NCBI GenBank assembly: GCA_035248905.1
Contig: DATFGX010000010.1
Coordinates: 55,579-119,578, forward strand
Length of the DNA stretch: 64,000 bases
Origin: Blastocatellia bacterium
GTDB lineage: Bacteria > Acidobacteriota > Blastocatellia > UBA7656
Direction of reading: 5' to 3'
Shown here: positions 1 through 48,970 of the stretch, one piece after another
Numbering within the stretch: the first letter of the stretch is position 1
Layout of the letters: every line of letters starts with the position of its first letter
Notes under the pieces: model-generated
The model's database searches: none
What the model was told of the DNA's origin: nothing
Seen by the model: only the letters and a program-made list of their open reading frames with translations
Translations under genes and position numbers: made by a program

Positions 1-887
1 TCAGCGCCGTTTCGGACGCGGTGATCCGCGCGCGGTCGGGCTTGAAAGACCCGAACCGTCCGATCGGCTCATTTATCTTCCTGGGGCCTACGGGCGTCGG
101 CAAGACGGAATTGGCGCGGGCGCTGGCGGGCTTCCTGTTCGACGACGAGCACGCGATGATCCGCATAGACATGTCCGAGTACCAGGAGAAGCACACCGTG
201 GCGCGCTTGATCGGTGCGCCGCCCGGTTATGTCGGTTATGAAGAAGGCGGGCAGTTGACCGAAGCGGTGCGCCGCCGGCCTTACTCGGTCGTGCTGTTCG
301 ACGAGATCGAAAAGGCGCACGCCGACGTGTTCAACGTGCTGTTGCAAATCCTCGACGACGGGCGGCTGACGGACGGCCAGGGGCGCGTGGTGAACTTCAA
401 GCACACGATCATCATCATGACGTCGAACATCGGCAGCCATCTGATCCTCGAATACAGCGGCAGGCTGGAGGGCGAGCAGTACGAGCAGATGAAGGACAGT
501 GTGCTCGACGCCTTGCGGCATCACTTCCGGCCTGAGTTCTTGAACCGGGTTGACGAGATCATTGTCTTCCACGCGCTGACCCGTGCCGACTTGAAGAAGA
601 TCATCGACATTCAGCTCGAACGCTTGCGCGGGCGCTTGAGCGAGCGGCGCATCAAGCTGAAGCTGACGGATCGTGCGAAAGAGTATCTCGCCGAAGCCGG
701 CTTCGACCCGGTCTACGGCGCGCGTCCGTTGAAGCGGGCGATTCAGCGCGAGATCGAAACGCCGCTCTCAAGGGCGATCTTGAAGGGCGAGGCGAAGGAC
801 AACTCGGTGGTCATCGCCGATCTGGAGAACGGCGAGATCAAGTTCCAGAGCAAGCCGCTGGCTGAATCAGTGGTCAGTGGTCAGTGA
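1..887 (+). CDS. clpB: ClpB chaperone, C-terminal AAA+ D2 domain (5'-partial; gene begins upstream of window)
   Basis: The translation (...[27 protein letters not shown]...[53 protein letters not shown]...) is near-identical to the ClpB NBD2 Walker A/sensor region. The frame continues to base 3 with no start codon. Confidence 0.9.
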
Positions 888-935
888 CCAGTGGCCAGTG
901 GTCGTCGCATCCGTGACTGGCCACTGACCACTGGC
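861..935. repeat. Palindromic hairpin element built from GTGGTCA/GTGGCCA-type heptamer repeats
   Basis: GTCAGTGGTCAGTGACCAGTGGCCAGTGG ... CCACTGACCACTGGCAACTGGCCACTGCC are inverted arms. The element overlaps the clpB stop. Confidence 0.7.
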
Positions 936-1006
936 AACTGGCCACTGCCATTGCTATGATGAAAGCACACGCGGCTGACAGTCGGAGAGCAGGAGGTCTG
1001 ACTCGC

Positions 1007-1333
1007 ATGGCTGAGATGCTTGTGATGCGACGCGCAAACGGCGACCTCTTCAGTAAAGAGATCAATGGGCAGCCGCGCATTCTCGTCTGGTCGAGCCGCG
1101 CCGCCTGCGCACGCTATCGAGAACGTAATCCTGAACTCCTGACGTACTTGCCCGCGCGCCTCGACGAAGCGTTGCTGCGACGCATCGCCGGCGACACCAA
1201 CGGCGCGCGGCACGCGACTTTCTTCCTCATCGCAGAGGACGCACCGGACGCTTCACTTGACCGGGGCCGCAGTGTCGCCCCGGACGAACTCTTGCTGACT
1301 TGCCGCGCCGCTGGGCGCGCGCGATCAGCGTAG
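1007..1333 (+). CDS. Hypothetical small protein (109 aa), apparently co-transcribed with the downstream eRF1-like gene
   Basis: A strong AGGAGG Shine-Dalgarno sits 9 nt upstream of the ATG at 1007. The ORF ends 55 nt before the next RBS+ATG. No recognisable family. Confidence 0.4.
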   Translation: MAEMLVMRRANGDLFSKEINGQPRILVWSSRAACARYRERNPELLTYLPARLDEALLRRIAGDTNGARHATFFLIAEDAPDASLDRGRSVAPDELLLTCRAAGRARSA

Positions 1334-1388
1334 CCAAGGTCGTCTGCGCCCTCGCTCGGAGCAAGGAGACCAACGCAGAACAAGGAGG

Positions 1389-2525
1389 ATGGGCATGATC
1401 TCTTACGATGACATACGCCAGTTACAGCAGTACCCGTCTGGCCCCGATTCCTGCATTCTCAGTCTGTACGTGAACATTGACCAGTCGAATGCCGCGAACC
1501 TCAACCGCGGCTTCATCACCCAGGTCGAGAACCTCTTCCGCCGCATGGCCGAAGACCCGAAGCTCGACCAGCGCGAGCGGCTCGACGCCGAGTGCAAGCG
1601 GGCGCTGGCCTTCTTAAACGATTACTCGGCGCGCGGCAAAGGGATCGTCATTTTTAGCGACTCGAAGCAGGATTTCTGGTGGCAGCGTGACCTGCAAGTC
1701 GCGGTGCCGACCGGCGGGCGCTGGTCGCAAAAGCCCTGGCTGCGCCCGCTGCTCGAACTGCTCGAAGACCATGACACGTTCGCCGTCGTCCTTGTCGATA
1801 AGCAGCGCGCCCGCGTCCTGACCGCGGACGCCAGCGGCCTCGAACAGCACGCCGAAGTCTTGTCGGACGTGCCGAACAAACACGCGACGACGGGGTCGGA
1901 CCACATCATGTCGCAAACGCAGATGCAGCGCGATCATGACGAACACGTCCGCGCCCACGTGCACCGGGTGATTGACGAGCTGACGAATGTCGTCGACCGC
2001 TTGAACCTGTCGCGCCTGGTCATCGGCGGCCCGGTCGAAGCGACTTCGACGTTGACCAATCAACTGCCGAAGCGACTCCAGCAGATGATCATCGGCACGA
2101 TTGCGGTGCCGTTGGACGCCAACTACGAGCGGCTGTCGAACGAGCTGCGCAAGGTGCAGCAGCAGAACGAGGGCGAAGACGAAGCGCGCATGGTCGAATC
2201 GATGATCACGGCGGCAATGAAGGGCGACCGTGCCGTGCTCGGCATCGGCGACACGCTGGCCGCCATTCAGGAGCAGCGCGTCTATCGCTTGATCGTCGCG
2301 CGCGATTACCGGCTCGAAGGCAAGGAGTGTAATGCTTGCCACATTCTCGTCGTAGACGGCGACTCGAAGTGCGCGTTCTGCGGCGGCGACTTGCAGGCGG
2401 CGCCCGATCTGATCAACCGCGCCTCGCACCGCGTCATCGAGCAGGCCGGCAAAGTGCAGATTGTTTCGGGCGCGGCGGCAGACAAACTTGCGGGCACAGG
2501 CGTCGGCGCCGTGCTGCGCTTTTAA
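1389..2525 (+). CDS. eRF1/Pelota-like (bacterial aeRF1-type) protein with C-terminal CxxC...CxxC zinc ribbon; function unknown
   Basis: AAGGAGGA RBS. A 378-aa soluble protein with a central region resembling the eRF1 domain-2/3 arrangement and a C-terminal CNACH...CAFCGG zinc ribbon. The gene is certain; the family assignment is tentative. Confidence 0.5.
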   Translation: MGMISYDDIRQLQQYPSGPDSCILSLYVNIDQSNAANLNRGFITQVENLFRRMAEDPKLDQRERLDAECKRALAFLNDYSARGKGIVIFSDSKQDFWWQRDLQVAVPTGGRWSQKPWLRPLLELLEDHDTFAVVLVDKQRARVLTADASGLEQHAEVLSDVPNKHATTGSDHIMSQTQMQRDHDEHVRAHVHRVIDELTNVVDRLNLSRLVIGGPVEATSTLTNQLPKRLQQMIIGTIAVPLDANYERLSNELRKVQQQNEGEDEARMVESMITAAMKGDRAVLGIGDTLAAIQEQRVYRLIVARDYRLEGKECNACHILVVDGDSKCAFCGGDLQAAPDLINRASHRVIEQAGKVQIVSGAAADKLAGTGVGAVLRF

Positions 2526-2527
2526 GG

Positions 2528-2612
2528 CGTGACAAGTGAACAGTGACAAGTGACAAGAGGGCCGCCACTTTCTTGTCACTTGTCACTTGTCACTTGTCAC
2601 TTGTCACTTGTC
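2528..2612. repeat. (GTGACAAG)n palindromic hairpin element
   Basis: GTGACAAGTGAACAGTGACAAGTGACAAG, a loop, then (CTTGTCA)x5 as a perfect inverted repeat. Lies between the eRF1-like stop and the clpP RBS. Confidence 0.8.
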
Positions 2613-2624
2613 ACGAAGGAGACT

Positions 2625-3218
2625 ATGGCACTTGTACCAACCGTCGTTGAGACATCGAGCAGAGGCGAGCGGCATTATGACATCTACTCGCGACTGCTCA
2701 AGGAAAACATCATCTTCATCGGCACGCCGATTGTCGAAGAGATCGCCAACCTGGTCGTCGCCGAGCTGTTGTTTCTGGAGTCGGAAGACCCCGACCGCGA
2801 CATCTCGATCTACATCAACAGTCCGGGCGGGTCGGTGTCGGCGGGGCTGGCGATCTATGACACGATGCGGTTTATCAAGCCGGACATTGTGACCATCTGC
2901 ATGGGGCAGGCGGCTTCGATGGCCGCCCTGCTGCTGGCGGCGGGGACGAAAGGCAAGCGGTTCGCGCTGCCGAACGCGCGCATCCTGATTCACCAGCCGT
3001 CGGTGAGTCGCATCGGCGGCCAGGCGACCGACATCCGCATACAGGCCGAAGAGATGCTGCGCATGCGCGCCCTGCTGTCACAGATTCTCGCCGACGCAAC
3101 CGGCCAGTCCTTCGCGAAGATTGACGAGGACGTCGAGCGCGATTTCATCCTCGGCCCGCAGCAGGCCATCGAGTATGGCTTGATCGATCAGGTGCTCAGC
3201 TCGCGCAACGAACGGTGA
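2625..3218 (+). CDS. clpP: ATP-dependent Clp protease proteolytic subunit ClpP
   Basis: AAGGAG RBS then ATG at 2625. Contains INSPGGSV...[14 protein letters not shown]...ILIHQPS, the ClpP catalytic Ser/His region. Confidence 0.9.
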
Positions 3219-3239
3219 TACCGTTAAGGCAAGTTCATC

Positions 3240-3605
3240 ATGGCAAAGAGCGGAAAAATTTTCATTGAGCGCATCAGGGACGAAGGCAGCTACCGCCGAC
3301 CGAGCGGGCCGCTGTGGCAGCCGGCGGTTGACATCTACAAGACTCCTGAAGGCTGGAAGATCAAATTCGATCTGGCCGGCGTCCGCCCCGAAGACGTGCA
3401 GGTGTTGCAGATCGAAAACGCCCTGGTGGTGCGCGGGGTCCGCCGCGACTCCGTGATGACCGAAGGGTGGAGCTATTACCAGCTTGAGATCACTTATAGC
3501 CGCTTCGAGCGCGTCATCAAAATTCCCTGCGACCTGTCGCAGTCCGAGATACGCAGCGAAGCCGTTGATGGCTGGATCATCCTTCACGTGGATTGCAATG
3601 GCTAG
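3240..3605 (+). CDS. Hsp20/alpha-crystallin family small heat-shock protein
   Basis: 121 aa with an alpha-crystallin domain pattern (DIYKTPEGWKIKFDLAGVRPEDVQV...YSRFERVIKIP). Located in the heat-shock cluster. Confidence 0.8.
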   Translation: MAKSGKIFIERIRDEGSYRRPSGPLWQPAVDIYKTPEGWKIKFDLAGVRPEDVQVLQIENALVVRGVRRDSVMTEGWSYYQLEITYSRFERVIKIPCDLSQSEIRSEAVDGWIILHVDCNG

Positions 3606-3700
3606 GGAGTAGGGACCAGGGGCTAGAGACTAGGGGCTGGAGAAGCGGCGGCGCGCCGTTTCCTTCTAGCCCCTAGCCCCTACTCCCTACTCCCTGTTCC
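3601..3700. repeat. (GGGACTA/GGGGCTA)n palindromic hairpin element
   Basis: GGGAGTAGGGACCAGGGGCTAGAGACTAGGGGCTGG ... CTAGCCCCTAGCCCCTACTCCCTACTCCC. Lies directly upstream of lon. Confidence 0.8.
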
Positions 3701-3713
3701 AGAGGAAAGAAGA

Positions 3714-6158
3714 ATGTCTGAGAATATTGAAAAAGTACAAGAACCGCAAACCCTCGAACTGCCGATCCTGCCGCTGCGCGGCACGGTCGTCTTCCCGTCG
3801 GGCATCTCGCCGCTGACGGTCGGGCGGCCGCTGTCGCTGCGGGCCGCCGAAGCGGCACTGGCGACCGAAGAGAAACTGCTCGGCGTCATTGCGCAGCGCG
3901 GCGACCAGGACGCGGAGCCGACTGCCGGCAATCTTTATCAAATCGGCACGCTCGTCGTCATCAATCGCATGATGCGCGCGCCCGGCCAGGAAGAAGTACT
4001 GCACCTGATCGTCCAGGGGCAGGAGCGCTTCCGCGTCATCGGCTTCACGGAACAGGAGCCATACTTCAAAGCGCGCGTCGAAATCCTGCCCGAACCCGTG
4101 CGCGAACAGACGCCCGAAGTCGAAGCCTTGCAGCGCAACATCCAGGCGCTGGTGCAGCGGGCGCTGGCACTGCTGCCGAACGTGCCGCAGGAGATTCGCA
4201 ACATCATCGTGCAGTCGGAAGACGCCGTGCGCCTGGCTTACTTCCTCGGCTCGATGCTCGACCTCGGCGTCGAGCAAGAGCAGGCGCTGCTGGAAGCCAA
4301 CAGCGAAGGCGAGCTGCTGCGGCTGATGCACACCTACCTGGCGCACGAGGTCGAAGTCCTCGAACTGCGCAGCAAGATCGCCAACCAGGCGCAGGAAGAA
4401 CTGGGCAAGGCGCAGCGCGATTACATCCTGCGCGAGCAGATGAAGCAGATTCAAAAAGAGCTGGGCGAGGCGGAGCCTGAGCAGGCCGAAGCCGCCTTGC
4501 TGCGCGAGCGCGTCGAGAAAGCCGACCTGCCCGAAGATGTGCGCAAAGAGGCCGAGCGCGAGCTGAAGCGGTTGGAGCGCTTGCCCGCCGCCGCGCCCGA
4601 TTACCACGTCATTCGCACTTATCTTGAATGGGTGCTCGACCTGCCGTGGAACAAGAGCACCGAAGACGACCTCGACCTGAACAAGGCGAAGGCGATTTTG
4701 GATGAAGACCACTACGACCTCGAAGACATCAAGGAGCGCATCCTCGAACACCTCGCGGTCATCAAGCTGAACCCGCGGACGAAAGCGCCCATTCTGTGCT
4801 TCGTCGGCCCGCCCGGCGTTGGCAAGACCAGCCTCGGCCAATCCATCGCGCGCGCCATGAGCCGCAAGTTCGAGCGCATGTCGCTGGGCGGCATGCGTGA
4901 CGAAGCCGAGCTGCGCGGCCACCGCCGCACCTACATCGGCGCGATGCCTGGGCGCATCATTCAAGCCTTGCGGCGCGCGGGCGTCAACAACCCCGTGATG
5001 ATGCTCGACGAAGTCGACAAGCTCGGCATGGACTTCCGCGGCGACCCGGCGTCGGCGCTGCTTGAGGTCTTGGACCCGGCGCAGAACAACACGTTCCGCG
5101 ATCACTACCTCGACCTGCCGTTCGACCTGTCGAAAGTGATGTTCATCGCCACGGCCAATTCGCTGGCACCGATCCCGCCGGCCTTGCGCGACCGCATGGA
5201 GATCATTCAACTGGCGGGCTACAGCGAGGAAGAAAAACTACACATCGCCAAGCGCTACCTCGCGCCGCGGCAGATCAAGGAAGCGGGACTGGCGGTCGAG
5301 CAGTTGCAGATCACCGACGAGGCGATACAGGCGATCATCGCGCAGTACACGCGCGAGGCCGGCGTGCGCCAGCTCGAACGGACGATCGGGCGGCTGGCGC
5401 GCAAGGTGGCCTTGAAGGTGGCGCAAGGACAGGGCGATGTCTTCACGATCAAGCCCGAAGACCTTGAAGAGTATCTCGGCCCTGAGCGCTTCTTCCGCGA
5501 GATGGGCCGCGAGCACTTGCCGCCGGGCGTCGCCACGGGCCTGGCCGTGACCGAGATGGGCGGCGAAGTGTTGTTCATCGAAGCGACGCTGCTGCCCGGC
5601 TCGAAAGGCTTGACGCTCACCGGGCAGCTCGGCGAAGTGATGCAGGAATCGGCGCGCGCGGCGCACAGCTACCTGTGGTCGCATGGCTTCGAGCTTGGCC
5701 TCAACGCCCGCGAGGTCTTCGACAAGAACGGCGTACACATTCACGTCCCGGCGGGCGCGATCCCGAAAGATGGCCCGTCGGCGGGCGTGGCGATTGTCTC
5801 GGCGCTGGCCTCTTTGTGCGCCAACCGTCCCGTGCGCAGCGACACGGCGATGACCGGCGAGATTACTTTGAGCGGCCTGGTCTTTCCCGTCGGCGGCATC
5901 AAGGGCAAAGTGCTGGCGGCGCGGCGCGCAGGCATGAAGCGCGTCGTCTTGCCGTCGCGCAATAAGCCCGACGTCAAGGACGTGCCCGAAGAGGCGCGGC
6001 GCGATCTCGAAATCGTCTTCGTCGAGCGCATTGACGAGGCGTTGCGGCAGACGCTCATGCCGCCCGTGGAAGGCGCGTCGCAGCCGCCGCAGAGCGAAAG
6101 CGAGCCGGTCGGAGCCGGCACCGAGGCGAGCTTCGAGAGCGGCGAAGCGCACGCGTAA
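3714..6158 (+). CDS. lon: ATP-dependent Lon protease (endopeptidase La)
   Basis: N-terminal LON substrate-binding domain, AAA+ Walker A GPPGVGKTS, and a C-terminal protease domain with DGPSAGVAIV...TGEITL. 814 aa. Confidence 0.95.
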   Translation: MSENIEKVQEPQTLELPILPLRGTVVFPSGISPLTVGRPLSLRAAEAALATEEKLLGVIAQRGDQDAEPTAGNLYQIGTLVVINRMMRAPGQEEVLHLIVQGQERFRVIGFTEQEPYFKARVEILPEPVREQTPEVEALQRNIQALVQRALALLPNVPQEIRNIIVQSEDAVRLAYFLGSMLDLGVEQEQALLEANSEGELLRLMHTYLAHEVEVLELRSKIANQAQEELGKAQRDYILREQMKQIQKELGEAEPEQAEAALLRERVEKADLPEDVRKEAERELKRLERLPAAAPDYHVIRTYLEWVLDLPWNKSTEDDLDLNKAKAILDEDHYDLEDIKERILEHLAVIKLNPRTKAPILCFVGPPGVGKTSLGQSIARAMSRKFERMSLGGMRDEAELRGHRRTYIGAMPGRIIQALRRAGVNNPVMMLDEVDKLGMDFRGDPASALLEVLDPAQNNTFRDHYLDLPFDLSKVMFIATANSLAPIPPALRDRMEIIQLAGYSEEEKLHIAKRYLAPRQIKEAGLAVEQLQITDEAIQAIIAQYTREAGVRQLERTIGRLARKVALKVAQGQGDVFTIKPEDLEEYLGPERFFREMGREHLPPGVATGLAVTEMGGEVLFIEATLLPGSKGLTLTGQLGEVMQESARAAHSYLWSHGFELGLNAREVFDKNGVHIHVPAGAIPKDGPSAGVAIVSALASLCANRPVRSDTAMTGEITLSGLVFPVGGIKGKVLAARRAGMKRVVLPSRNKPDVKDVPEEARRDLEIVFVERIDEALRQTLMPPVEGASQPPQSESEPVGAGTEASFESGEAHA

Positions 6159-6160
6159 AG

Positions 6161-6215
6161 GTGGCGCAAGCTGTTAGCTTGCGCGAGGCCATGCGCAAGC
6201 TAACAGCTTGCGCCA
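6161..6215. repeat. GCGCAAGCT-family palindromic hairpin (two nested copies) between convergent lon and acyl-CoA synthetase
   Basis: GGTGGCGCAAGCTGTTAGCTTGCGC ... GCGCAAGCTAACAGCTTGCGCCAC. Likely a bidirectional terminator. The same family recurs at 10663-10690. Confidence 0.7.
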
Positions 6216-6217
6216 CA

Positions 6218-7957
6218 TCATGCCGTGCGCTGGCGGGCGACGTCTTCGAGGCCAAGCTCTTTGATGAGCAAGGCACGCAGCTCAAACTTCTTCACCTTGC
6301 CGCTCGCGGTCAGCGGGTACTGCTCGACGAAGCGCACGTAGCGCGGCACCTTGTAGCGGCTGATGTTGGTGCGGCAGTATTCGCGAATCTCTTCTTCGTC
6401 GGCGCTCGCCTCGGCTTTCAAGCGGACGAACGCCGCCACCTCTTCGCCCATCAGCGGGTCGGGCACGCCGACAATTTGCGCCTCGACGACTTTCGGGTGG
6501 CGCATCAGCCAGGCTTCGACCTCCGCCGGGTAAACGTTCTCGCCGCCGCGAATGATCATGTCTTTCACGCGCCCGACGATATTGACGTAGCCCTGCGGGT
6601 TCATCGTCGCCAGGTCGCCCGTGTGCAGCCAGCCGTCTGCGTCTATGGTCTCCGCCGTGCGTTCGGGCATGTTGTAATAGCCCTGCATCACCAGGAAGCC
6701 GCGCTCCAGCAGCTCGCCCGGCTCGTTGAAGCCGACCGGCTCGCCGGTCTCCGGGTGAACGATCTTGACCTCGACGTGCGGCAGCGGGATGCCGACGGTT
6801 GATGACTTCAGCTCGAAGCTGTCGGTGATGACGGTCTGCGTGATCGAGCCGGACGATTCGGTCTGCCCGAAGACGATGGTGCAATCCGCGCCCATCTGTT
6901 GTTTGACCTGCTCCATCAAGGCGACCGGCACCGGCGCCGCCCCTGTGATGACGAGGCGGAGCGCCGATAGGTCGAATTCGCCGGCGATAAAGCGCGAGTG
7001 GTTGAGCATCGCGATTAACATCGTCGGCACGCTCATGGTGACCGTGCCGCGCTGCTCGGCAAACAGGGCGAGCTGTTTCGCCGGGTCGAAGCTGATGAGC
7101 GGAATCAATCTGCAACCCGAAGCGAGCCAGATAAGGACTGCGCCGACGCAGCCAGCGACATGAAAGAAAGGCATCGGCGTCACGTAACCGTCGTCGGCGC
7201 GAAACTCGGCCTGCCGGCCCACGATGAGCGCTTGATTGACCAAAGCGACGTGCGTCAGCATCACCGCCTTCGGGAATCCGGTCGTGCCGCTGGTGTAGAG
7301 CATCTGCGCCACGTCGTCGGGAGCGACGCTCGCCTGGCGCTGGTTGAGCGCCGCGTCGCTGATCGTCGCGGCCAGCGCCGCGACCTGCGAATAAAGCAGC
7401 ATCCCCTGCGGCGCTCGCTCGCCGATGAGCACGACACGTTCGAGCAAGGGCAGCCGCGCGCTGTGCAGCCGCGCGTTGAGCGGATCACTGAGGCGCGACA
7501 GTTCCGGCAAGAGGCCGTTGATGGTTTCGACGTAAGCATGATCGCGGTAGGCTGCGATCATAAAGAGCGTCGTGATGTCGCCCTGGCGGAGGACGTATTC
7601 CAGCTCGCCGGCGCGATAGTTGGTGTTGACGGTGACGAGCACCGCGCCGACCTTGGCCAGCGCCAGTTCGAGGAAGATCCATTCCGGCACGTTGGTCGCC
7701 CACACCGCGACGTGCTCGCCGCGCCGGACGCCGAGCGCCAGCAGTCCTTTGGCCAGACGATTCACTTCGTCCAGGCAGGCGCGAAAAGTCATCCGCAAAT
7801 CGAGGCCGATTTCGCGGTAGCTGTAGACCAGTGCCTCTTTGTCGGGCGACGCGGCAGCGCGGTGGTCGAGCAGCTCGCCGATGGTTTGATGAACCAGTTC
7901 GCTGCCGCGGCTTTCGGCTTGCCACACGGCGCGCTCGCCTTGAACTCCCATAAGCAC
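6218..7957 (-). CDS. AMP-dependent acyl-CoA synthetase/ligase (fatty-acid-CoA ligase family)
   Basis: AMP-binding signature [17 protein letters not shown], then ...GDLA...GRVKD and a Lys-containing C-terminal motif. 579 aa. Confidence 0.85.
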
Positions 7958-7960: not shown

Positions 7961-8050
7961 TCCAGATGGGTGATGGGTGTTGGGTTATGGGTGTTAGGCA
8001 GAACGCTACGTTGTCCGGCACCCAACACCCAACACCCGACACCTATCACC
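7961..8050. repeat. (GGGTGTT)n palindromic hairpin element
   Basis: GGGTGATGGGTGTTGGGTTATGGGTGTTAGG ... ACCCAACACCCAACACCCGACACCTATCACCC. Lies between MaoC and the acyl-CoA synthetase, which run in the same direction. Confidence 0.8.
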
Positions 8051-8420
8051 CTTTGCGGATGATGCCGTGCGCGTGGCCGGTCATGACTTCTTTGTCGTGC
8101 TGGTTGCGGCAGACGAAGGTGGACGACTGGCGCGTGACGCTTTCGTCCACACGGTGCTCGGTGATGGTCACCTCGCAGGTGATGGTGTCGCCGGCGTAGA
8201 CCGGGCGCAGGAATTGAAAGCAGAGCTCGCGGGCGATGAAATTCATGTCGCCGCCGATCTTTGTCGGCAACGTCGCCGTCAGCAGTCCCTGCGCCATCAG
8301 CCGGCCCTGCGCGTCGTACTCCAGGTGGTGCACGCCTTCGTCGCCCGACATTCGCGTGAAGGCGCGAATGTCTTCTTCCGTGAATGTGCGCTGCCAAGAT
8401 AAAACGTCACCTGCTTGCAT
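8046..8420 (-). CDS. MaoC-like (R)-specific enoyl-CoA hydratase, hotdog fold
   Basis: 124 aa. MaoC dehydratase pattern (...EYDAQGRLMAQGLLTATLP...GDTITCEVTI...). Confidence 0.8.
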   Translation of the reverse strand: MQAGDVLSWQRTFTEEDIRAFTRMSGDEGVHHLEYDAQGRLMAQGLLTATLPTKIGGDMNFIARELCFQFLRPVYAGDTITCEVTITEHRVDESVTRQSSTFVCRNQHDKEVMTGHAHGIIRKG

Positions 8421-14139: not shown

Positions 14140-14210
14140 GGGAAGATAAACACGGAGGCACGGAGAATCACGGAGAAGAACTCCGTGCCTCCGTGTCTCC
14201 GTGTTTTTGA

Positions 14211-16325: not shown

Positions 16326-16425
16326 AACACCTCTCGATTTTGGATTTTGGATTTTAGATTTTAGATTGGGGATGTGCGCGCCAGTTCCGGCAATCCAAAA
16401 TCCAAAATCTAAAATCCAAAATTAT
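16324..16425. repeat. (TTTTGGA/TTTTAGA)n palindromic hairpin element
   Basis: TTTTGGATTTTGGATTTTAGATTTTAGA ... CTAAAATCCAAAATCTAAAATCCAAAAT. Lies between two same-strand genes. Confidence 0.8.
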
Positions 16426-20984: not shown

Positions 20985-21075
20985 CAGAAAATCAACCGCC
21001 AAGACGCCAAGACCGCCAAGAGGACACGGAGAATTCTCTCTTCTCTTGGCGGTCTTGGCGGTTGATTGACAAGGC
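20985..21075. repeat. (CGCCAAGA)n palindromic hairpin element in a divergent promoter region
   Basis: CCGCCAAGACGCCAAGACCGCCAAGAGG ... CTCTTGGCGGTCTTGGCGG. Lies between divergently transcribed genes. Confidence 0.8.
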
Positions 21076-21149: not shown

Positions 21150-24100
21150 ATGAACAAGAGACAATGGCGGCGCGCCGTGTCGCCGGTTTTTCTGATTGCG
21201 GTAATCGGCCTGTTGTTGGCCGGCGACCTCTGGGCGCAACGCCAGCGCAAACCGCCGGTGCGCACGCCTGCGCCCGCGCTGCAACCGCCGAAGCCTGAGC
21301 TGGTCATTCAGAATGGCCACTTCGATAACATTCGCTCGGTCGCCTTCAGTCCCGACGGGCGGCTGATCGCGTCGGGCGGCGCTGACCAGACCATCCGCTT
21401 GTGGGAAGCCGCCACGGGCCGCCTGCGCCGCGTCCTCGACGGCCATTTCGATGATGTCGCCTGCATTACGTTTTCTCCCGATGGCCGAACGCTGGCGTCG
21501 GCGAGCCTCGACAAGAGCGTGAAGCTCTGGGAGGTCACGACCGGCAAGCTGCTGCGCACGCTCTCAGGTCACGAGGCCGAAGTCCTTGCCGTTGCCTTCA
21601 GTGCTGACGGGCGCGAGCTGGTATCGGCGGGCGGCGACGCGACGATCAACGTCTGGGACACGAAGAGCGGCGAAGTGCTGCTCACCATTGATGCGCGCGC
21701 GCCGGTGCGCGCCGTCGCCTTCAGCCCTGACGGGCAGACGATTGCCGGCAGCACAGGCAAGACCGTGAGGCTCTGGAACAGTGAGAGCGGCGCGCTCATC
21801 CGCACTCTCGAAGACCACACGGCGGAAGTCCGCGCCATCGCCTTCCGTCCGGACGGAAAGCTGATTGCTACGGCGAGCCTCGATAAAACCGTCAAGCTCT
21901 GGGAAGTCGCCAGCGGCCAGTTGCTGCACACCCTCGTTGGCCACACGAGCGGCGTGGCTGCTGTCGCTTTTCATCAAGACGGCAAGAGCCTGGCGTCCGG
22001 CGGTCAGGACAAGAGCGTCATCCTCTGGGACATTGACACAGGCACACGACTGCGTACCTTCGCAGGCCACGCCAATCCGGTCAGCTCGGTCGCCTTCAAC
22101 AATGATGGCTCGATCATCGCCGCCGCCAACTATCGCGCCGTGACGCTCTGGGAGACCGCGAGCGGCAAGCAACTGCGCGCCCTCGAAGGGCGCTCGTCGG
22201 AAGTGCGCCGCATCGCCTACAGCAGCGACGGGCGGACGTTCGCGGCGACCAGCGGCGCGACCATCAAGCTGTGGGACGCGCCGAACGTCCGCTTGATGCG
22301 CACGCTCGCAGGCCATACGTCTGAGGTCAGCGGCGTGGCATTCAGCCCTGACGGCAAGACGCTCGCGTCGGCAAGCTGGGATCGAACCGTCAGGCTGTGG
22401 GAGCCTGAGAGTGGCAAGCTCCTGCGCACGCTCACGGGGCACACGTCTGAGGTCAGCTCGGTCGCGTTCAGTCCCGATGGCAAGACGGTTGCGGCGGGCG
22501 GCGAAGACCGCACCATTCGTCTGTGGGATGCCGGCACGGGCCGTTTGCTGCGCACGCTCACAGGCCATTTCAGTCTGGTGGAGTCTGTCGCGTTTAGCCC
22601 CGACGGTCGGCGGCTGGCTTCGGGCAGCGTCGATTCGACGGTGCGGCTGTGGGACGTGGAGAGTGGTTCACTCCTGCGCACGCTCAACGGCCACGGCTCG
22701 CAGGTGCATGCGGTCGCCTTTAGTCCCGATGGCCGCGTCATCGCTTCGGGCAGCGCCGATAAAACCGTCAAGCTGTGGGACGCCGCGAGCGGCGCGCTGC
22801 TGCGCACGGCTGAAGGCCACACCTACGACGTGCTGTCGCTGGCGTTCAGCGGCGATGGGAAATGGTTAGCGTCGGGCGGCTACGACAAGACGATCAAGTT
22901 ATGGGATGCGACCAACGGCAATCTCGTGCGCACGCTCGTAGGCCACGCCAGCCCTGTGTCGTCGCTCGTCTTCAGCCCGAATCATAAATGGCTGTTGTCG
23001 GGGAGCTGGGATACGACGACGAAAATCTGGTCGCTCGATCTGGGCGTGAACCTGGTCACTTTACTTGCTTTCAAAGATGGCAACTGGATCGCCTTCACGC
23101 CCGAAGGCTACTACGACGGCTCGGACAGTGGCGGCCAGTATGTCGCCTGGCGCGTCGCCGACGCGATCTTCGACTTCGATCAATTCTTCGACCGCTTCTT
23201 CAAGCCGCAGGTCGTGCCGAAGACCTTGCAGGAGCCGACGGCCAAACCCGCCGACACCATCGCGAAAGGCTTTGCGACGCCGCCCGACGTGCGCATCACT
23301 TCGCCGCGCAAAGACGAGCGCTTCACGACCGAAGAAGTCGAGGTGACCGTCGAAGCGCGCGACACAGGCGGCGGCGCCGAAGACTTGCGGCTCTATCAAA
23401 ACGGCAAGCTCGTCAACCCCGCCAGTCGCGGCCTGAAAGCGATGGCGCGCGGCACGCTGGCGGCGACCTATCGGGTTTTGCTTGCCGAAGGCGGCAATAC
23501 GCTGCGCGCCGTCGCCTACAGCCGCGACCGCACCGAAAGCCGCGCCGACGAAATCAGCGTGCAACTGGCGGCGCCAGAAAAGCAGGCGGCGCTGCGCCTG
23601 CTGGTCGTCGGCATCAGCCGCTACCAGAACCCGACCTTGAACTTGAACTATTCGGTGCAGGATGCGGAAAGCATTGCAAATTACTTTCAGCAGACCGGCG
23701 GGCGGCTGTTCCGCGAAGTCGAGATCAACCGGCTCTACGACGCAGAGGCCAGCCGCGCCAACATCCTGAAGGCGTTTGCGCGGCTCAGTGAGACGGCGCG
23801 GCCCGAAGACGTGGTGATCATCTATTTCGCGGGCCACGGCGACAGCCGCGCCGACCAGTGGTACTTCATCCCGCACGAGATCACGCAGCCCGAACGCGAC
23901 GAGCAACTGACGGCGGGCGGCGTCTCGTCGTCGGCGATCTCTGAGGCACTGGTCAAGATTCGTTCACGGAAGGTGCTGTTGCTGCTCGACGCCTGCCGTT
24001 CGGGCGGCGCGGTGGTGTCGTTCCGCGGTTACGAAGACCGCAAATCACTCGCGCAGTTGGCGCGCTCTGCCGGCGTCCACATCATCGCGGCGTCGGGCGC

Positions 24101-24338
24101 GAGCCAGTTGGCCGCGGAGATCGATGAGCTGCGTCACGGCCTGTTCACTTACGTGTTGCTGGCGGGCTTGCAAGGCGAGGCGGTCGTCGGCGCGGCCAGC
24201 CGCAGCGTCACCGTGCGCGGGTTGTTAGCGTACATCGAAGACCGCTTGCCGGAAGTGTCGAAGAAGTACAAGGCCGAAGCGCAATACCCGGTCAGTTCGT
24301 CAAAGGGTCAGGACTTCCCCGTGGCCCTGTTGCGCTAA
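21150..24338 (+). CDS. WD40-repeat protein (about 14 blades) with C-terminal caspase-like (peptidase C14) domain; N-terminal signal/TM
   Basis: Repeated GH...WD-type units (SVAFSPDG...ASGS.D.T.KLWD). The C-terminus has IIYFAGHGD and LLLDACRSGG, a caspase His/Cys dyad. 1062 aa. Confidence 0.85.
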   Translation: MNKRQWRRAVSPVFLIAVIGLLLAGDLWAQRQRKPPVRTPAPALQPPKPELVIQNGHFDNIRSVAFSPDGRLIASGGADQTIRLWEAATGRLRRVLDGHFDDVACITFSPDGRTLASASLDKSVKLWEVTTGKLLRTLSGHEAEVLAVAFSADGRELVSAGGDATINVWDTKSGEVLLTIDARAPVRAVAFSPDGQTIAGSTGKTVRLWNSESGALIRTLEDHTAEVRAIAFRPDGKLIATASLDKTVKLWEVASGQLLHTLVGHTSGVAAVAFHQDGKSLASGGQDKSVILWDIDTGTRLRTFAGHANPVSSVAFNNDGSIIAAANYRAVTLWETASGKQLRALEGRSSEVRRIAYSSDGRTFAATSGATIKLWDAPNVRLMRTLAGHTSEVSGVAFSPDGKTLASASWDRTVRLWEPESGKLLRTLTGHTSEVSSVAFSPDGKTVAAGGEDRTIRLWDAGTGRLLRTLTGHFSLVESVAFSPDGRRLASGSVDSTVRLWDVESGSLLRTLNGHGSQVHAVAFSPDGRVIASGSADKTVKLWDAASGALLRTAEGHTYDVLSLAFSGDGKWLASGGYDKTIKLWDATNGNLVRTLVGHASPVSSLVFSPNHKWLLSGSWDTTTKIWSLDLGVNLVTLLAFKDGNWIAFTPEGYYDGSDSGGQYVAWRVADAIFDFDQFFDRFFKPQVVPKTLQEPTAKPADTIAKGFATPPDVRITSPRKDERFTTEEVEVTVEARDTGGGAEDLRLYQNGKLVNPASRGLKAMARGTLAATYRVLLAEGGNTLRAVAYSRDRTESRADEISVQLAAPEKQAALRLLVVGISRYQNPTLNLNYSVQDAESIANYFQQTGGRLFREVEINRLYDAEASRANILKAFARLSETARPEDVVIIYFAGHGDSRADQWYFIPHEITQPERDEQLTAGGVSSSAISEALVKIRSRKVLLLLDACRSGGAVVSFRGYEDRKSLAQLARSAGVHIIAASGASQLAAEIDELRHGLFTYVLLAGLQGEAVVGAASRSVTVRGLLAYIEDRLPEVSKKYKAEAQYPVSSSKGQDFPVALLR

Positions 24339-24344: not shown

Positions 24345-24410
24345 AACCGCCAAGACGCCAAGACCGCCAAGAGAGGATGAATTTCTTGGCGGTCTTGGCG
24401 TCTTGGCGGT
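24345..24410. repeat. (CGCCAAGA)n palindromic hairpin; likely bidirectional terminator between convergent genes
   Basis: CCGCCAAGACGCCAAGACCGCCAAGAG ... CTTGGCGGTCTTGGCGTCTTGGCGG. Same family as 20985 and 33753. Confidence 0.75.
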
Positions 24411-31593: not shown

Positions 31594-31700
31594 TCAGTGA
31601 CAAGTGACGAGTGACAAGAAGAACTGCGCATGCGCAGGCTCACCGGCATGACGAATGACAACGTCTTGTCACTCGTCACTTGTCACTTGTCACGGTTTTT
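31594..31700. repeat. (GTGACAAG)n palindromic hairpin element
   Basis: AGTGACAAGTGACGAGTGACAAG ... CTTGTCACTCGTCACTTGTCACTTGTCAC. Overlaps the 3' end of the EncFtn-like gene. Confidence 0.8.
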
Positions 31701-33752: not shown

Positions 33753-33830
33753 ATGAACCGCCAAGACGCCAAGATCGCCAAGAGGATACAGAGCCTTTCT
33801 TGGCGATCTTGGCGTCTTGGCGGTTAAAGG
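33753..33830. repeat. (CGCCAAGA)n palindromic hairpin element
   Basis: ACCGCCAAGACGCCAAGATCGCCAAGAGG ... CTTGGCGATCTTGGCGTCTTGGCGGTT. Confidence 0.8.
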
Positions 33831-34932: not shown

Positions 34933-35517
34933 ATGAATTCAGGCTCTCAGGAAATTACACAACTGCTGCTGGCTTGGAATGACGGCGATCAAACGGCCCT
35001 TGAGCGGCTGGCGCCGCTCGTCGAGCGCGAGCTGCACCGGCTGGCACAAGGTTACCTGAATCACGAACGGCGCGGGCACAGCTTACAAGCGACGGAACTG
35101 GTCAACGAAGCATACGTGCGGCTGATCGATTGGCAGAACGTCGCGTGGCAGAACCGCGCGCACTTCTTCGGCATGGCGGCGCAGATGATGCGGCGCATCC
35201 TGGTTGATCACGCGCGCCGCCAGCAGTTCCAGAAGCGCGGCGGCGGCGGCGCCATTCAAGTGTCGCTTGAGCGCGCCGAGAACATCGCCGGGCCATCAAG
35301 CGTAGATGTGATCGCGCTCGACGACGCGCTCGCCGCGCTGGCGCAGTTCGACGAGCGCAAGAGCCGCATCGTCGAGCTGAAATTTTTCGGCGGCCTCAGC
35401 GAGGCCGAGATTGCCGAGACCTTGCAGGTCTCTTTGCGCACCGTGCAGCGCGAGTGGAACCTGGCGCACGCATGGCTGTACCGCGAGTTGAGTAAGGAAA
35501 CTCACGATGACGCCTGA
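34933..35517 (+). CDS. ECF-subfamily RNA polymerase sigma factor (the type paired with Ser/Thr kinases)
   Basis: N-terminal QLLLAWNDGDQ..LERL, sigma-2 and sigma-4 regions. Its stop overlaps the kinase start. Confidence 0.85.
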   Translation: MNSGSQEITQLLLAWNDGDQTALERLAPLVERELHRLAQGYLNHERRGHSLQATELVNEAYVRLIDWQNVAWQNRAHFFGMAAQMMRRILVDHARRQQFQKRGGGGAIQVSLERAENIAGPSSVDVIALDDALAALAQFDERKSRIVELKFFGGLSEAEIAETLQVSLRTVQREWNLAHAWLYRELSKETHDDA

Positions 35518-38500
35518 ACGCTGGCAACGCATCGAGCAGGTTTACTTCGCGGCCCTGGCGCGCTCGCCCAATGAGCGCGCCGCCTGGCTCGACCAGGCAT
35601 GCCGGGACGACGCGGCCTTGCGCGCCGAAGTCGAATCGCTGCTCGCTGCACATCGGCAGGGGGGCGGCTTTCTGGCCGAGCCGGCGCTCGAAGTCGTCGC
35701 CAAGCAACTCGCCCTCGAACCGTCGCTGGCGCAGGCCGGACAGATCATCAATCAGTATCAGATTCTTGCGCCGCTCGGGCGGGGCGGCATGGGCGTGGTC
35801 TACAAGGCGCTCGACCTCAGGCTCGGACGCACGGTGGCGCTGAAGATGCTGTCGCCGGCGCTCGTCAGCGATCAAACGGCCCGCCTGCGCTTCCTGCGCG
35901 AAGCCCGCGCCGCGTCAATGCTGGCCCACCCGAACATCTGCACGGTCTTCGAGGTCGGCCAGAAGGACGAGCTGGTCTACATCGCTATGCAGTACGTGCA
36001 GGGCAAGACGCTCGCCGATGGTTTAGGCGAATCGCGGCTGCCGCTGCGCGTGGCGCTCGGCTACGCCCTCGACATCGCCGACGCTTTAGACGAGGCGCAC
36101 GGCCAGGGCGTCATTCACCGCGACATCAAGCCGACCAACATCATCATCAACGAGCGCGGCAGGGCGGTGGTGCTCGACTTCGGACTGGCGAAGTACGTCG
36201 GGGCGCGGCGCACACTGGATGGCGAAGCGCCGACGCTTTTGCAGATCACCGAGGAGATGAGTCCCATCGGCACGCCAGCTTACATGTCGCCGGAGCAGGC
36301 GCGTGGCGGGCGGCTCGACGAGCGCAGCGACATCTTTTCATTCGGCGTGATGCTCTACGAGATGACGACCGGCCAGCGCCCGTTCAGCGGCCATAGCCAG
36401 ATGGACACGCTGCACGCCATCCTCTACCACGACCCGCCGCCGCCGCTTGCGGTCAACCCGGCCATCCCCGCCCGCCTCGACCGGATCATCAGACAGACCA
36501 TCGCCAAAGACCCCGCTGTACGCTACCAGTCATTCGCCGACCTGAAGGCAGACCTTGCCGCCTTGCTCGCAGAGAAAAGTGGCGCCTTGCCGATGCCGAA
36601 TTCGGAACCGCTCGCCGCCGCGACGACCAGTCCGAACGACCCGACGATCACCGACGAAGCGCGTTCCTACCGCACGGCAGCGGGCGCGGCGGCGATGACC
36701 GGGCGCATCTTGCGCCCGCTGCTCAGGCCGCGAAACGTGATGATCGTTGCTGCCGCTGCGCTGGCGGTCGTCGCCGCCTATCTGGCCTGGCGCGGGCGCG
36801 GCAGCCCAAGCGATGCCGAGCTGATCGCCTCGCTGAAGCTAACAGAACTAGTCAACTGGAAGGAGCAGGGCTATTACACCGGCGCAGACATTCTTGGCAG
36901 CATCTCGCCCGACGGCAAGATGATCGCCTATTGCTCAAGGAGCGATGGCCTCGGCAACATCTGGATCAAACAGACGAGCGGCGGCGACCCAGTTCAGATC
37001 ACCAAAGACAGTTGGCATAACTGGAGTCCGATCTGGTCGCCGGATGGCCAGGAGCTGGCTTACCTCTCGCGGCGCGGGCAGCAGACCGGCATCTGGCGCG
37101 TGCCCGCCTTCGGCGGCGCGGCGAAACTCGTGGCGACGCTCGCGCCGCTCGGCGGACGGCTGAGCCGCTGGTCGAAAGATGCCAAGACGATCTACTACGA
37201 AGCCGACGGCAATTTCTTTGCCCTTGATTTGAGTTCGGGCCAGAGTCGCGCCTTGACCGAGTTCGACCCGCAGAACTTGCCCGCTTATGATTTCAGCATC
37301 TCGCCCGCCGAAGACCGTATCACTTACGTCGAATCGAAAGATGGCCAGGTTGATCTCTGGGTTACGCCGTTGGCGGGAGGCTCACCCACCCAAATCACGA
37401 ATGACTCGGCCGAAGATCGACCTGCTTTCTGGCACCCGGATGGGCGGCGGATTCTCTACAGCTCGAAACGCGATGGCGTGTTTCAAATCTTCGTGGCCTA
37501 CATGGATGGCCGCAAGCCTGTGCAGCTCACCTTTGGAGACCGTGATAGCTTTGTGTCGGGCATCTCTGAAGACGGGACAAAGCTCGCGGTCAGCTCGATC
37601 CGCCAGGACTCTGACCTGTGGGCCGTGGACGTGAACACCGGTGAAGAGACGCAAATTACCACTGATGTTCATGCAGAGATGTGGGCCGACTTTTCGCCCG
37701 ATGGCCGGCATATCGCCTACCAGTTCATGCGCCAGCACGACGACCTGATGAGCTCGCAGGTTCTGCTCCAGGCGACCGGCACCGGCGAGCAGCAGGTTGA
37801 ACTGGCGACTACCGGTATCGAGCCGCGATGGTCACCGGATGGCAGGACACTCGCCTTTCTGCGGCTCGCTGGCGGCATTCGCCAACTCTGGACGATCAAC
37901 GCCACGGGAACCGGTGAACGGCAATTGACCGCGCGCGGCATATCGGGCTTGAATTTCACCATCAACCCCTTCAACCGGGCCCACAGCAGCGAGTTTAGCT
38001 GGTCGCCGGACAGCCGCCGCATGGCATTTACGACGGCAAGCGCGGAGCCGGGCATCTGGGTCGCCGCCGCCGATGGCCAGAATGAGATACGCACCTTGCC
38101 GACTCCCGATGCAGACACGGCGTTTTACTGCCCGCTGTGGTCGCCTGACGGGAGCCGCATCGCCTACCTTTCGATAACCGAGATGCAGACGCAAGTCGTC
38201 TGGAAGGTTCTGACGCTTGCAACGGGTCAGCCCACTCCCAGAATGCTGTATCAGTCGAATTCGGTGTTGCGACTGCTTGGCTGGTCGGCGACCGGTCACG
38301 CATTGGTCGTCGCGACGGTGGCCGGGAAAGCCAAGTTTGCTTCGCAACCATCCGCTGTCGGTCTGTTTGAGCTTGCCACTGATACCGGCGGCGTACGTCC
38401 CATTGCGACTGCCGAAGCGGCTTATCTCTATAACAACCAGTTGTCGGCGGACAAGCGGGTCATTGCCATTGCGCGGCATCAAGATGGCAAAGACAACCTC

Positions 38501-45387: not shown

Positions 45388-45497
45388 GTGACGAGTGACA
45401 AGTGAACAGTGACAAGATCAGGTGACAAAGCATTGCTGCCAGCGTTCAACCGGCGCAGCCGCTTGTCACTTGTCACTCGTCACTTGTCACTTCTTGA
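45388..45497. repeat. (GTGACAAG)n palindromic hairpin between the SBP gene and the permease genes
   Basis: GGTGACGAGTGACAAGTGAACAGTGACAAG ... CTTGTCACTTGTCACTCGTCACTTGTCAC. Confidence 0.8.
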
Positions 45498-48893: not shown

Positions 48894-48970
48894 GCGTGAC
48901 AAGTGATGAGTGACAAGTGACAAGAAGACGACGGTTTCTCACTTGTCACTTGTCACTCGTCACTTGTCAC
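48894..48970. repeat. (GTGACAAG)n palindromic hairpin between convergent genes
   Basis: GTGACAAGTGATGAGTGACAAGTGACAAG ... CTTGTCACTTGTCACTCGTCACTTGTCAC. Overlaps the uspA stop. Confidence 0.8.

Follow-up and report, generated by a model that had tools for sequence, protein, structure and literature searches.

Organization of the gene cluster

We analysed a 64-kb stretch of a metagenome-assembled Blastocatellia (Acidobacteriota) genome, referred to in its full length as the window, whose first 6.2 kb hold six + strand genes, namely clpB (its 3′ part only), a small open reading frame (ORF), a gene that we call baeRF10 after the Pfam family of its product, clpP, hsp20 and lon (Table 1). The baeRF10 product is predicted from its sequence and modelled structure to be a three-domain protein of the archaeo-eukaryotic release factor 1 (aeRF1) fold that belongs, like the mycobacterial factor Msmeg1130, to Pfam baeRF_family10. 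Its gene is a fixed, class-wide component of a dnaJ–clpB–(small ORF)–baeRF10–clpP–hsp20–lon cluster.

Pfam and NCBIfam agree on the identities of clpB, clpP, hsp20 and lon, which a preliminary description of this DNA had placed in one heat-shock cluster. The clpB gene is truncated by the start of the window; relatives show a full-length clpB with a dnaJ-like gene 5′ of it. The two genes with ribosome-binding sites (RBSs) that had been described between clpB and clpP are both present with Shine-Dalgarno sequences, the small ORF encoding 108 amino acids (aa) rather than 109. In the small ORF the sequence AGGAGG lies at 991-996, with the ATG 10 nt further on. The true baeRF10 start is probably the second ATG, at 1395, because AAGGAGG at 1382-1388 leaves no gap to the ATG at 1389 and one of 6 nt to that at 1395, and because MISYDD is the N-terminus both in the NCBI model and in most homologues. 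The start codon of clpP, as read from the sequence, is ATG 2625 and not GTG 2550.

Table 1. Features of the cluster and related elements (window positions unless a locus is named)
Feature	Position	Strand	Remarks
clpB, 3′ part (second AAA+ module, D2-small domain)	1..887	+	Pfam AAA_2, ClpB_D2-small; TIGR03346 582-853 of 853
Hairpin 1, clpB/small ORF	868..947	+	Inverted heptamer arrays CAGTGGT/ACTGGCC; -64.4 kcal/mol, z -7.3
Small ORF, 108 aa, MRRANGDLF...RNPEL motif	1007..1333	+	TTHA0547/Tic22-like alpha/beta fold
baeRF10 (aeRF1-fold, Pfam baeRF_family10, Msmeg1130/Balon-type)	1389..2525	+	378-aa ORF; probable start ATG 1395 (376 aa)
Middle-domain tip loop and start of long helix, aa 163-183	1875..1937	+	NKHATTGSDHIMSQTQMQRDH; sits at eRF1 GGQ-loop position
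Zinc ribbon C314-x2-C317 ... C328-x2-C331	2328..2381	+	Inserted in C-terminal Pelota/eRF1_3-like domain
Hairpin 2, baeRF10/clpP	2528..2615	+	Inverted heptamer arrays GTGACAA/CTTGTCA; -52.7 kcal/mol
clpP, proteolytic subunit	2625..3218	+	PF00574 269 bits; NF001368 307.9 bits, cutoff 249
hsp20, small heat-shock protein	3240..3605	+	PF00011 47.3 bits, cutoff 20.8
Hairpin 3, hsp20/lon	3600..3700	+	Inverted heptamer arrays TAGGGAC/CTAGCCC; -73.3 kcal/mol
lon, ATP-dependent protease La	3714..6158	+	TIGR00763 918 bits, cutoff 608; Pfam LON_substr_bdg, AAA, Lon_lid, Lon_C
Palindrome, near-perfect, 39-nt arms, lon/convergent gene	6146..6231		-72.3 kcal/mol; 29-nt unit, not heptamers
AMP-binding (acyl-CoA synthetase-like) gene, convergent with lon	6218..7957	-	
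Further heptamer-type hairpins	7965-8051, 16336-16422, 31596-31693, 45388-45492, 48896-48970, 57865-57936, 59860-59967; 14159-14204, 20995-21062, 24346-24410, 33759-33822		
dnaJ-upstream element	L001:3530-3600, L004:3525-3600, equivalent site in 29 other loci		Outside window

The baeRF10 protein is a distant homologue of Msmeg1130

The baeRF10 protein matches PF18854 (baeRF_family10) at 106.4 bits over residues 116–248, against a cutoff of 27.1 in Pfam, and every close and distant homologue that we checked carries PF18854. Weaker Pfam matches are to baeRF_family2, eRF1_2, acVLRF1 and eRF1_3. The top NCBIfam match is NF052288, the MSMEG_1130-family ribosome hibernation factor, in which residues 20–378 align with model positions 17–387 of 387 at 100.8 bits; on this score we class the protein as a homologue and not an equivalog of the MSMEG_1130 family. 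It is followed by the Rv2629 family (69.4 bits), TIGR03676 aRF1_eRF1 (50.9) and the Psychrobacter urativorans Balon family AOC03_06830 (36.9). The best sequence match in the PDB is 8v9j_z (Msmeg1130 'Balon'), which aligns over the full length with an E of 2.9e-6, followed by eRF1. The Msmeg1130 sequence, rebuilt from the PDB alignment, itself scores 124.7 bits on PF18854, and the baeRF10 protein therefore shares one Pfam family with a characterised, ribosome-bound factor.

The AlphaFold2 model (pLDDT, the predicted local distance difference test, 76.7; predicted template-modelling score 0.59) has three domains: the N domain, a middle domain that is RNase-H-like and whose tip loop leads into a long helix, and a C domain of the Pelota/eRF1_3 type. 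A Foldseek search with this model returned matches over the full length and put the ribosome-bound Msmeg1130 structure 8v9j_z first, with template-modelling (TM) scores of 0.80/0.83 and an E of 1e-23; Balon and Rv2629 followed at TM 0.67–0.71, aRF1/eRF1 at 0.5–0.57 and Pelota/Dom34 at ≤0.45. The eRF1/Pelota-type fold and zinc ribbon proposed in the preliminary description are thus upheld by Pfam, by the PDB sequence search and by AlphaFold2 with Foldseek, and the structure prediction, which could have returned an unrelated fold, returned the aeRF1 fold.

The shared overall fold, together with the weak matches to TIGR03676, eRF1_2, eRF1_3 and pelota models, might suggest that the protein is a stop-codon-dependent aRF1/eRF1 orthologue, or a Pelota/Dom34 orthologue working with an Hbs1-like GTPase. 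We give this next to no credence. There is neither a NIKS motif nor a GGQ tripeptide in the baeRF10 sequence, and the N domain carries a conserved DQSxAxNLNRGF motif in place of NIKS. The TIGR03676 score of 50.9 bits stands against a cutoff of 234.7, the Pelota model TIGR00111 gives 16.4 bits against 177.65, and the eRF1/aRF1 and Pelota TM scores fall below that of Msmeg1130. Furthermore, bacterial RF1/RF2 are never displaced by baeRF-1 proteins (PMC6514570). On scores and motifs we reject canonical release factor or Pelota orthology. What the protein shares with aRF1/eRF1 is the fold, the domain order and a C-domain insert at the zinc-ribbon position (PMC6514570); in family 10 at large, the tip loop also keeps to the KH-xx-GG register.

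A conserved tip loop and zinc ribbon

An exhaustive HMMER search of 1.84 billion representative proteins returned 2,551 relatives at E ≤0.001, 242 of them at E ≤1e-30. We compared 24 close homologues (65–91% identity), a distant set of 136 near-full-length representatives (24–57% identity) and a second set of 117. Among the close homologues, whose mean column identity is only 76%, the tip loop NKHxTTG[TS]DHI[WM]SQxxMxRDH is invariant (N163, H165, G169, D171, H172, I173, S175, Q176, M179, R181 and H183). In the alignment to eRF1 KHGRGGQSA, the position of eRF1 Q185 is occupied by T or S in the baeRF10 protein, and an invariant S-Q, derived from the family motif GGW[SA]Q, lies 6 residues downstream. 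In the AlphaFold2 model, aa 166–174 form a loop at low pLDDT and the helix spans 174–205. Conservation extends to the 136 representatives, with G169 in 85%, S175 in 67%, Q176 in 66%, Q180 in 72% and R181 in 93%, and Gln occupies position 176 in 89 of the 117 proteins of the second set. Q176 is thus the conserved catalytic-loop Gln that Burroughs and Aravind described for family 10 in 2019.

In distant family-10 members the loop reads RH-DQ-GG-W-[SA]-Q-xxx-QR-HH, and its H-xx-GG is in register with KH-GR-GG-Q of eRF1. The family Gln therefore lies 2 residues past the catalytic Gln of eRF1, forming a GxxQ/GGxSQ-type motif. In the clade of the window, TG replaces GG and a further 4-residue insert, TDHI, precedes W-S-Q. 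The alignment of Msmeg1130 in this loop is ambiguous: the hidden Markov model and L-INS-i both set its AGQ opposite GGW, whereas a 2-residue shift pairs AGQMREQR with SQxxxQR and matches Q, R, Q and R, so that Msmeg1130 may or may not carry an equivalent Gln.

The CxxC...CxxC ribbon noted in the preliminary description is real. All four of its Cys residues (C314, C317, C328 and C331) are invariant in the 24 close homologues, each is found in 88–92% of the 136 representatives, and they are retained in at least 116 of the 117 proteins of the second set. Msmeg1130 lacks all four. The ribbon occupies the C-domain insert position at which Balon has its EF-Tu-contacting β-hairpin. In many baeRF families a two-strand insert, possibly a degenerate zinc ribbon, replaces the ribbon, and both the zinc ribbon and the conserved Gln of family 10 were already described in 2019 (PMC6514570).

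The baeRF10 gene is fixed in the cluster throughout Blastocatellia

We examined the arrangement in relatives. The order infA (on the opposite strand), dnaJ-like, clpB, [small ORF], baeRF10, clpP, hsp20, lon was found in 37/37 loci with upstream flank, of 39 species-level Blastocatellia loci in which the factor shows 54–91% identity, and it is also present on two long metagenome contigs. The scan was seeded with the baeRF10 factor; it covers factor-bearing loci and cannot reveal clusters without the factor. In two loci (L016 and L032) clpP is missing from the cluster and the factor is directly followed by hsp20 and lon. The gene arrangement seen in the window is thus conserved among relatives, and the factor, like Balon, is encoded in what reads as a stress-response operon. 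Of the link between rescue and heat shock that had been suggested for this locus, the position in a chaperone/protease cluster is conserved; rescue of stalled ribosomes or nascent chains is a hypothesis.

The small ORF encodes a conserved protein that is repeatedly lost

The small ORF clearly encodes a conserved protein, judging from its 60 homologues, in which the RANGDLF and RNPxL motifs are invariant. It gave no significant sequence match in Pfam, NCBIfam, a phmmer search of the PDB, a PDB profile search or per-member Pfam scans. Fold comparison provided the only lead, a TTHA0547/Tic22-like fold. TTHA0547 (PDB 2z0r) is an uncharacterised Thermus thermophilus protein that resembles the small ORF in fold with no detectable sequence similarity and is not mentioned in the literature that we searched; Tic22 proteins are about twice the length of the small ORF. 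A 97-aa homologue with 40% identity (E 2e-21) is encoded in a clpB–htrA–...–ftsH cluster of another acidobacterial lineage.

We detected the small ORF in 30 of the 37 flank-bearing loci; it is missing or decayed in L002, L006, L010, L015, L024, L030 and L042. In these seven, the spacer from clpB to the factor is 164–493 nt long, highly structured and repeat-rich, and two of them hold remnants of the C-terminal part, at L006:4589-4678 (tblastn E 1e-6) and L002:7812-7979 (a consensus match by eye only). There has thus been repeated loss of the small ORF in loci that retain the ribosome factor. Because it adjoins htrA and ftsH elsewhere, is repeatedly lost with the factor kept, and resembles Tic22, we consider, with low confidence, that it is probably a protein-binding accessory of the quality-control module and not an obligate partner of the factor.

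Retention of the loop Gln and the genomic neighbourhood of family 10

Family 10 occurs in several other neighbourhoods. In the other acidobacterial lineage mentioned above the order is clpB–htrA–small ORF–ftsH–LigB/AMMECR1–baeRF10, and in another lineage it is Hsp20–BON–HPF–baeRF10–rhomboid–NfeD–Hsp20–HtrA–x–ClpB. In two loci baeRF10 is followed by Usp, and one locus (L048) has no stress-gene neighbours. A second Blastocatellia paralogue lies in an HPF–CBS/DUF2267–Usp–baeRF10 locus (L046:3996-8143); it has Asp (SD) at the position of the loop Gln and QH for QR, and the zinc ribbon is retained.

A metagenome scan added 80 loci, and 86 were analysed (L043–L128), of which 59 have Gln at position 176 and 27 have D, E or A. 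Among informative loci, 23 of the 46 with Gln and 0 of the 19 without it have a same-strand gene for ClpB, ClpP, Lon, HtrA, FtsH or Hsp20 nearby (p=4e-5, the loci not being independent). Counted as clusters at ~55% identity, 7/15 Gln against 0/7 non-Gln clusters sit beside chaperone/protease genes (p=0.051). The link between Gln retention and a chaperone/protease neighbourhood is therefore suggestive. The forms that lack the Gln are accompanied by HPF, by Usp on their upstream side or by both, or are unlinked; Usp tends to be downstream of Gln forms and is immediately upstream of SD forms. Three Gln forms lie directly 3′ of HPF within chaperone/protease clusters (L047, L058 and L086). Across the 86 loci, homologues of the small ORF are confined to those of the chaperone/protease type.

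Hibernation and release as possible functions

It was not until 2024 that aeRF1 homologues of bacteria were identified as ribosome hibernation factors. To our knowledge, no such factor has been studied outside Psychrobacter and mycobacteria. Msmeg1130, Balon (P. urativorans; PDB 8rd8, 8rdv, 8rdw) and Rv2629 (M. tuberculosis; 8v9k) are A-site-binding hibernation factors from which NIKS and GGQ are reported absent, and Msmeg1130 and Rv2629 were shown to inhibit translation; Balon homologues are found in stress operons with Hsp20, DnaK and DnaJ, and Bacillus subtilis YocB is heat-induced (PMC10901736).

The most parsimonious reading, which we hold by analogy with Balon and Msmeg1130 and with middling confidence, is that the baeRF10 protein would occupy the ribosomal A site during proteotoxic stress; like every activity proposed here, this is something that we infer. 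It is favoured because the closest solved relatives bind the A site, NIKS and GGQ are lacking, Balon genes are reported from stress operons, HPF adjoins the factor in several family-10 loci, and the conserved cluster has, in relatives, a single promoter-like element 5′ of dnaJ. Proteotoxic stress would induce the cluster, and the factor would be made alongside the chaperones and proteases. Bound in the ribosomal A site, probably together with EF-Tu like Balon, it would have its N domain at the decoding centre, where no codon would be read, and its invariant middle-domain loop toward the peptidyl-transferase centre. Elongation would be blocked and ribosomes protected, leading to fewer new unfolded chains, and meanwhile ClpB, DnaJ and Hsp20, together with ClpP and Lon, would clear damaged protein.

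Comparison with the known factors shows both likeness and divergence. Msmeg1130 (M. smegmatis, PDB 8v9j/8v9l; PMC10901736) has the same Pfam domain and full-length three-domain architecture, likewise without NIKS or a GGQ tripeptide, and is the best structural match to the baeRF10 model. It differs in being reportedly hypoxia-induced (PMC10901736), whereas baeRF10 belongs to a clpB–clpP–hsp20–lon cluster. Balon and Rv2629 are likewise bacterial aeRF1-fold A-site factors, typically encoded in stress operons. They represent different subfamilies, since the baeRF10 protein scores far below the cutoffs of both their models; its N domain lacks the HP dipeptide (read from the sequence), and its loop is conserved with the Gln retained. 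The neighbours given for these factors do not include ClpB, ClpP or Lon (PMC10901736).

Several points weigh against A-site hibernation. Identity to Msmeg1130 is only ~20%, and the 100.8 bits on NF052288 lie far under the equivalog cutoff of 480. The protein keeps a zinc ribbon, absent in Msmeg1130, at the position of the EF-Tu-binding β-hairpin of Balon (PMC6514570), and it has an invariant S-Q at the start of the post-loop helix that Msmeg1130 may lack. Family 10 was singled out as possibly catalytic for its Gln (Burroughs and Aravind, PMC6514570), and a pure A-site plug should have no need of this residue; among the 86 loci, the D/E/A forms were never in chaperone/protease neighbourhoods, as against 23 Gln forms. 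Strong purifying selection acts on the whole loop, whereas in other baeRF families the loops are poorly conserved (PMC6514570). Finally, heat induction of the cluster is something that we infer from gene content only.

These points bear on a different, tentative possibility, namely that the protein is an active release or rescue factor whose S175-Q176 loop hydrolyses the peptidyl-tRNA ester or cuts the tRNA 3′ end as Vms1 does. It would act in the A site of heat-stalled ribosomes or on dissociated 50S–peptidyl-tRNA particles, and the freed chains would be degraded by ClpP or Lon or handled by ClpB, DnaJ and Hsp20, which would make it a bacterial, heat-shock-wired analogue of Vms1/ANKZF1 with Cdc48. 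Besides the invariance of S175, Q176, R181 and the surrounding loop in the clade, this is suggested by the family motif H-x-Q-G-G-W-[SA]-Q-x3-Q-R, which has its GG in the eRF1 register and is of the GxxQ/GGxSQ type; such motifs were assigned to predicted active VLRF-1 families, and family 10 was named as potentially catalytic (PMC6514570). The prevalence of the Gln in both homologue sets, its association with neighbourhood (23/46 against 0/19 loci), the protease genes immediately downstream, the retained zinc ribbon and a Pfam acVLRF1 score of 25.3 bits, just below the cutoff of 27.1, point the same way. However, none of the aeRF1 homologues of bacteria is known to be catalytic, and the three that were studied bind as hibernation factors (PMC10901736). 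In the clade of the window, the change of GG to TG and the TDHI insert have cost the wider-family GxxQ spacing. Msmeg1130, described as non-releasing, may carry an equivalent Gln under the 2-residue shift, Gln forms also occur directly 3′ of HPF, and the association of Gln with context is weak once clades are counted.

Vms1/ANKZF1 and the VLRF-1 clade offer a further comparison (PMC6514570; PMC5989216). The aeRF1-superfamily middle domain and, in the wider family 10, the GxxQ/GGxSQ-type loop are shared, as is an association with an AAA+ machine and proteolysis, which here is one of gene neighbourhood. By contrast, the match to acVLRF1 (PF18859) is sub-threshold, the GxxQ spacing is broken in the window clade (TTG-TDHI-[WM]-SQ), and VLRF-1 families modify or lose their flanking domains (PMC6514570), both of which the baeRF10 protein keeps.

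Hibernation and catalysis are not mutually exclusive. It is conceivable, though we would wager against it, that the Gln- and zinc-ribbon-bearing branch of family 10 is an active bacterial counterpart of Vms1/eRF1 in a heat-shock proteostasis regulon. If so, peptidyl-tRNA would be released or cleaved on heat-stalled ribosomes or 50S subunits, and the chains would pass to ClpP, Lon, HtrA or FtsH and to ClpB; the small Tic22-like protein would serve as a holdase or adaptor. Branches beside HPF and Usp, in which D, E or A has replaced the Gln, would then be non-catalytic hibernation derivatives, in parallel to the split between eRF1 and Dom34.

The family itself (PF18854, baeRF-1 family 10, 'Balon homologues') is already catalogued, and a member has been solved on the ribosome. 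Relative to the literature that we searched, its class-wide fixation between clpB and clpP–hsp20–lon appears to be new, as does its recurrent linkage to a small TTHA0547/Tic22-like protein and, more tentatively, the link between Gln retention and a chaperone/protease neighbourhood. ClpB is not mentioned in the Balon paper (PMC10901736), in Burroughs and Aravind (PMC6514570) or in the Balon papers found with ClpB as a search term, and the supplementary files of the Balon paper that we searched contain no Acidobacteria entries. In Acidobacteria, a phylum that is dominant in soil but poorly studied, the locus would provide a direct tie between ribosome control and the protein-quality-control response. 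A question posed in 2019, whether peptidyl-tRNA hydrolases still exist among the bacterial aeRF1 homologues, could also be put to a clean test here: this branch keeps the loop Gln and the zinc ribbon, and the HPF/Usp sister branches have replaced the Gln. A catalytic branch would provide a bacterial analogue of the eukaryotic Vms1–Cdc48 step of nascent-chain release; if the protein is simply another Balon, the locus would be a further, unremarkable case of a known family, in a new operon context.

A candidate control element upstream of dnaJ

The preliminary description found no CIRCE element, and our search of the window for TTAGCACTC-N9-GAGTGCTAA confirms this. When ≤4 mismatches were allowed, the only matches were one site each in two related loci (L034 and L035, each with 4 mismatches), neither upstream of dnaJ. 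The HAIR operator (CTTGAGT-N7-ACTCAAG) is absent at ≤2 mismatches from the window and from 42 related loci. HrcA/CIRCE and HspR/HAIR control were rejected, there being no operator in the window or 5′ of the chaperone genes in the 42 related loci.

In relatives, a strongly conserved motif AAA[CT]TTGACA-N8-[AG]CTCATATTTTATGCT lies 57–140 nt 5′ of dnaJ, exactly once per locus, in 31 loci. This element, neither CIRCE nor HAIR, can be read as TTGACA and TATGCT separated by a 17-nt spacer that contains an invariant segment; a conserved TCGCAGATTT follows. It is the best candidate for the promoter and operator of the cluster. The corresponding motif TTGACA-N8-CTCATATTTTAT is absent from the window, which starts inside clpB. 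Within the window, we also noted a sigma-70-like consensus match (CTGGCA-18-TATGAT, with TG upstream) at 931-960 on the + strand, 5′ of the small ORF and overlapping the 3′ arm of hairpin 1; if real, it could be a separate promoter for the small ORF and baeRF10.

Heptamer hairpins recur in the cluster and across the window

The three heptamer hairpins of the cluster are real (z about -7.4; 0 of 200 shuffles as stable), but the earlier statement that every gene pair is separated by one was too broad, the 55-nt spacer between the small ORF and baeRF10 and the 21-nt spacer between clpP and hsp20 having no hairpin. The same two spacers are short and unstructured in relatives (medians of 60 and 35 nt), and in 23 of 40 related loci a heptamer hairpin lies between the factor and clpP, with unrelated unit sequences. 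Across the window there are ~14 inverted arrays of 7–9-nt units in intergenic positions, beside unrelated genes, and those outside the cluster have stabilities of -36 to -64 kcal/mol. Several units recur (GTGACAA four times, GATTTTG twice, ACCGCCAAG three times and CTAGCCC-like units two to three times); the hairpin 2 unit GTGACAA/CTTGTCA is found again in the arrays starting at 31596, 45388 and 48896, and a unit related to hairpin 3 in that starting at 57865.

The preliminary description had proposed that these hairpins could respond to heat. As RNA thermometers or similar devices they would give the cluster its heat-shock control, a notion encouraged by their location in the intergenic spacers of a chaperone/protease cluster, by the recurrence of a hairpin between the factor and clpP in relatives, and by the lack of CIRCE and HAIR operators. 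We regard it as highly improbable. Known thermometers have stems of far lower stability than the -53 to -73 kcal/mol found here, which is far too much for a physiological change of temperature to melt. None of the stems covers the Shine-Dalgarno sequence of the small ORF, clpP or lon: hairpin 2 ends immediately ahead of the RBS of clpP (GAAGGAG, 2615-2621), and the RBS of lon (GAGGA, 3702-3706) is just outside hairpin 3. We thus found neither a marginally stable stem sequestering a Shine-Dalgarno sequence nor a family match, Rfam giving no match at the gathering threshold and a permissive scan returning only sub-threshold microRNA-precursor-like matches with E up to 1. Moreover, similar hairpins stand beside unrelated genes, some with an identical unit, the units differ between relatives, and the promoter-like element 5′ of dnaJ is a better candidate for control. 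On these grounds of stability, free RBSs, genome-wide occurrence, non-conserved units and no Rfam thermometer family, thermosensing was rejected.

The hairpins instead read as generic, fast-evolving, genome-wide intergenic palindromes. Within the cluster they probably act as transcript punctuation, by attenuation, 3′-end protection or processing, dividing it into clpB, small ORF with baeRF10, clpP with hsp20, and lon. A search for intrinsic terminators found no T-tract after any cluster hairpin. Abundant intergenic heptanucleotide repeat arrays are known in other bacteria (PMC4679880), and, as cited there, a 2007 survey by Mrazek covers such arrays. The present hairpins resemble these arrays and REP-like palindromes in being short tandem heptamers concentrated in intergenic DNA throughout the genome. 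They differ in being inverted pairs that form 30–40-bp stems, in comprising several unit families per genome, and in having units that vary between related genomes at the same position. Between lon and the AMP-binding gene that converges on it, the cluster ends in a palindrome that looks like a bidirectional terminator.

Other features of the window

Two small hydrophilic ORFs lie far downstream of the cluster and may encode stress- or desiccation-type proteins. One, at 57173-57379 on the − strand, specifies a 68-aa protein made up of little but (QQGG)n, into which a 12/36-nt DNA repeat at 57195-57343 is translated; the other, at 57677-57859 on the + strand, is a 60-aa hydrophilic ORF beginning MPRGDKSAYTDKQKRQAEHIEEGYEKRGVSENEAERRAWATVNKESGGGKK. 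Two large + strand genes encode proteins of eukaryote-like architecture: a 1,062-aa multi-WD40 beta-propeller protein (21150-24338), whose gene contains 126-nt tandem DNA repeats at 22297-22820, and a 1,051-aa Ser/Thr kinase fused to PD40/WD40-like repeats (35507-38662).

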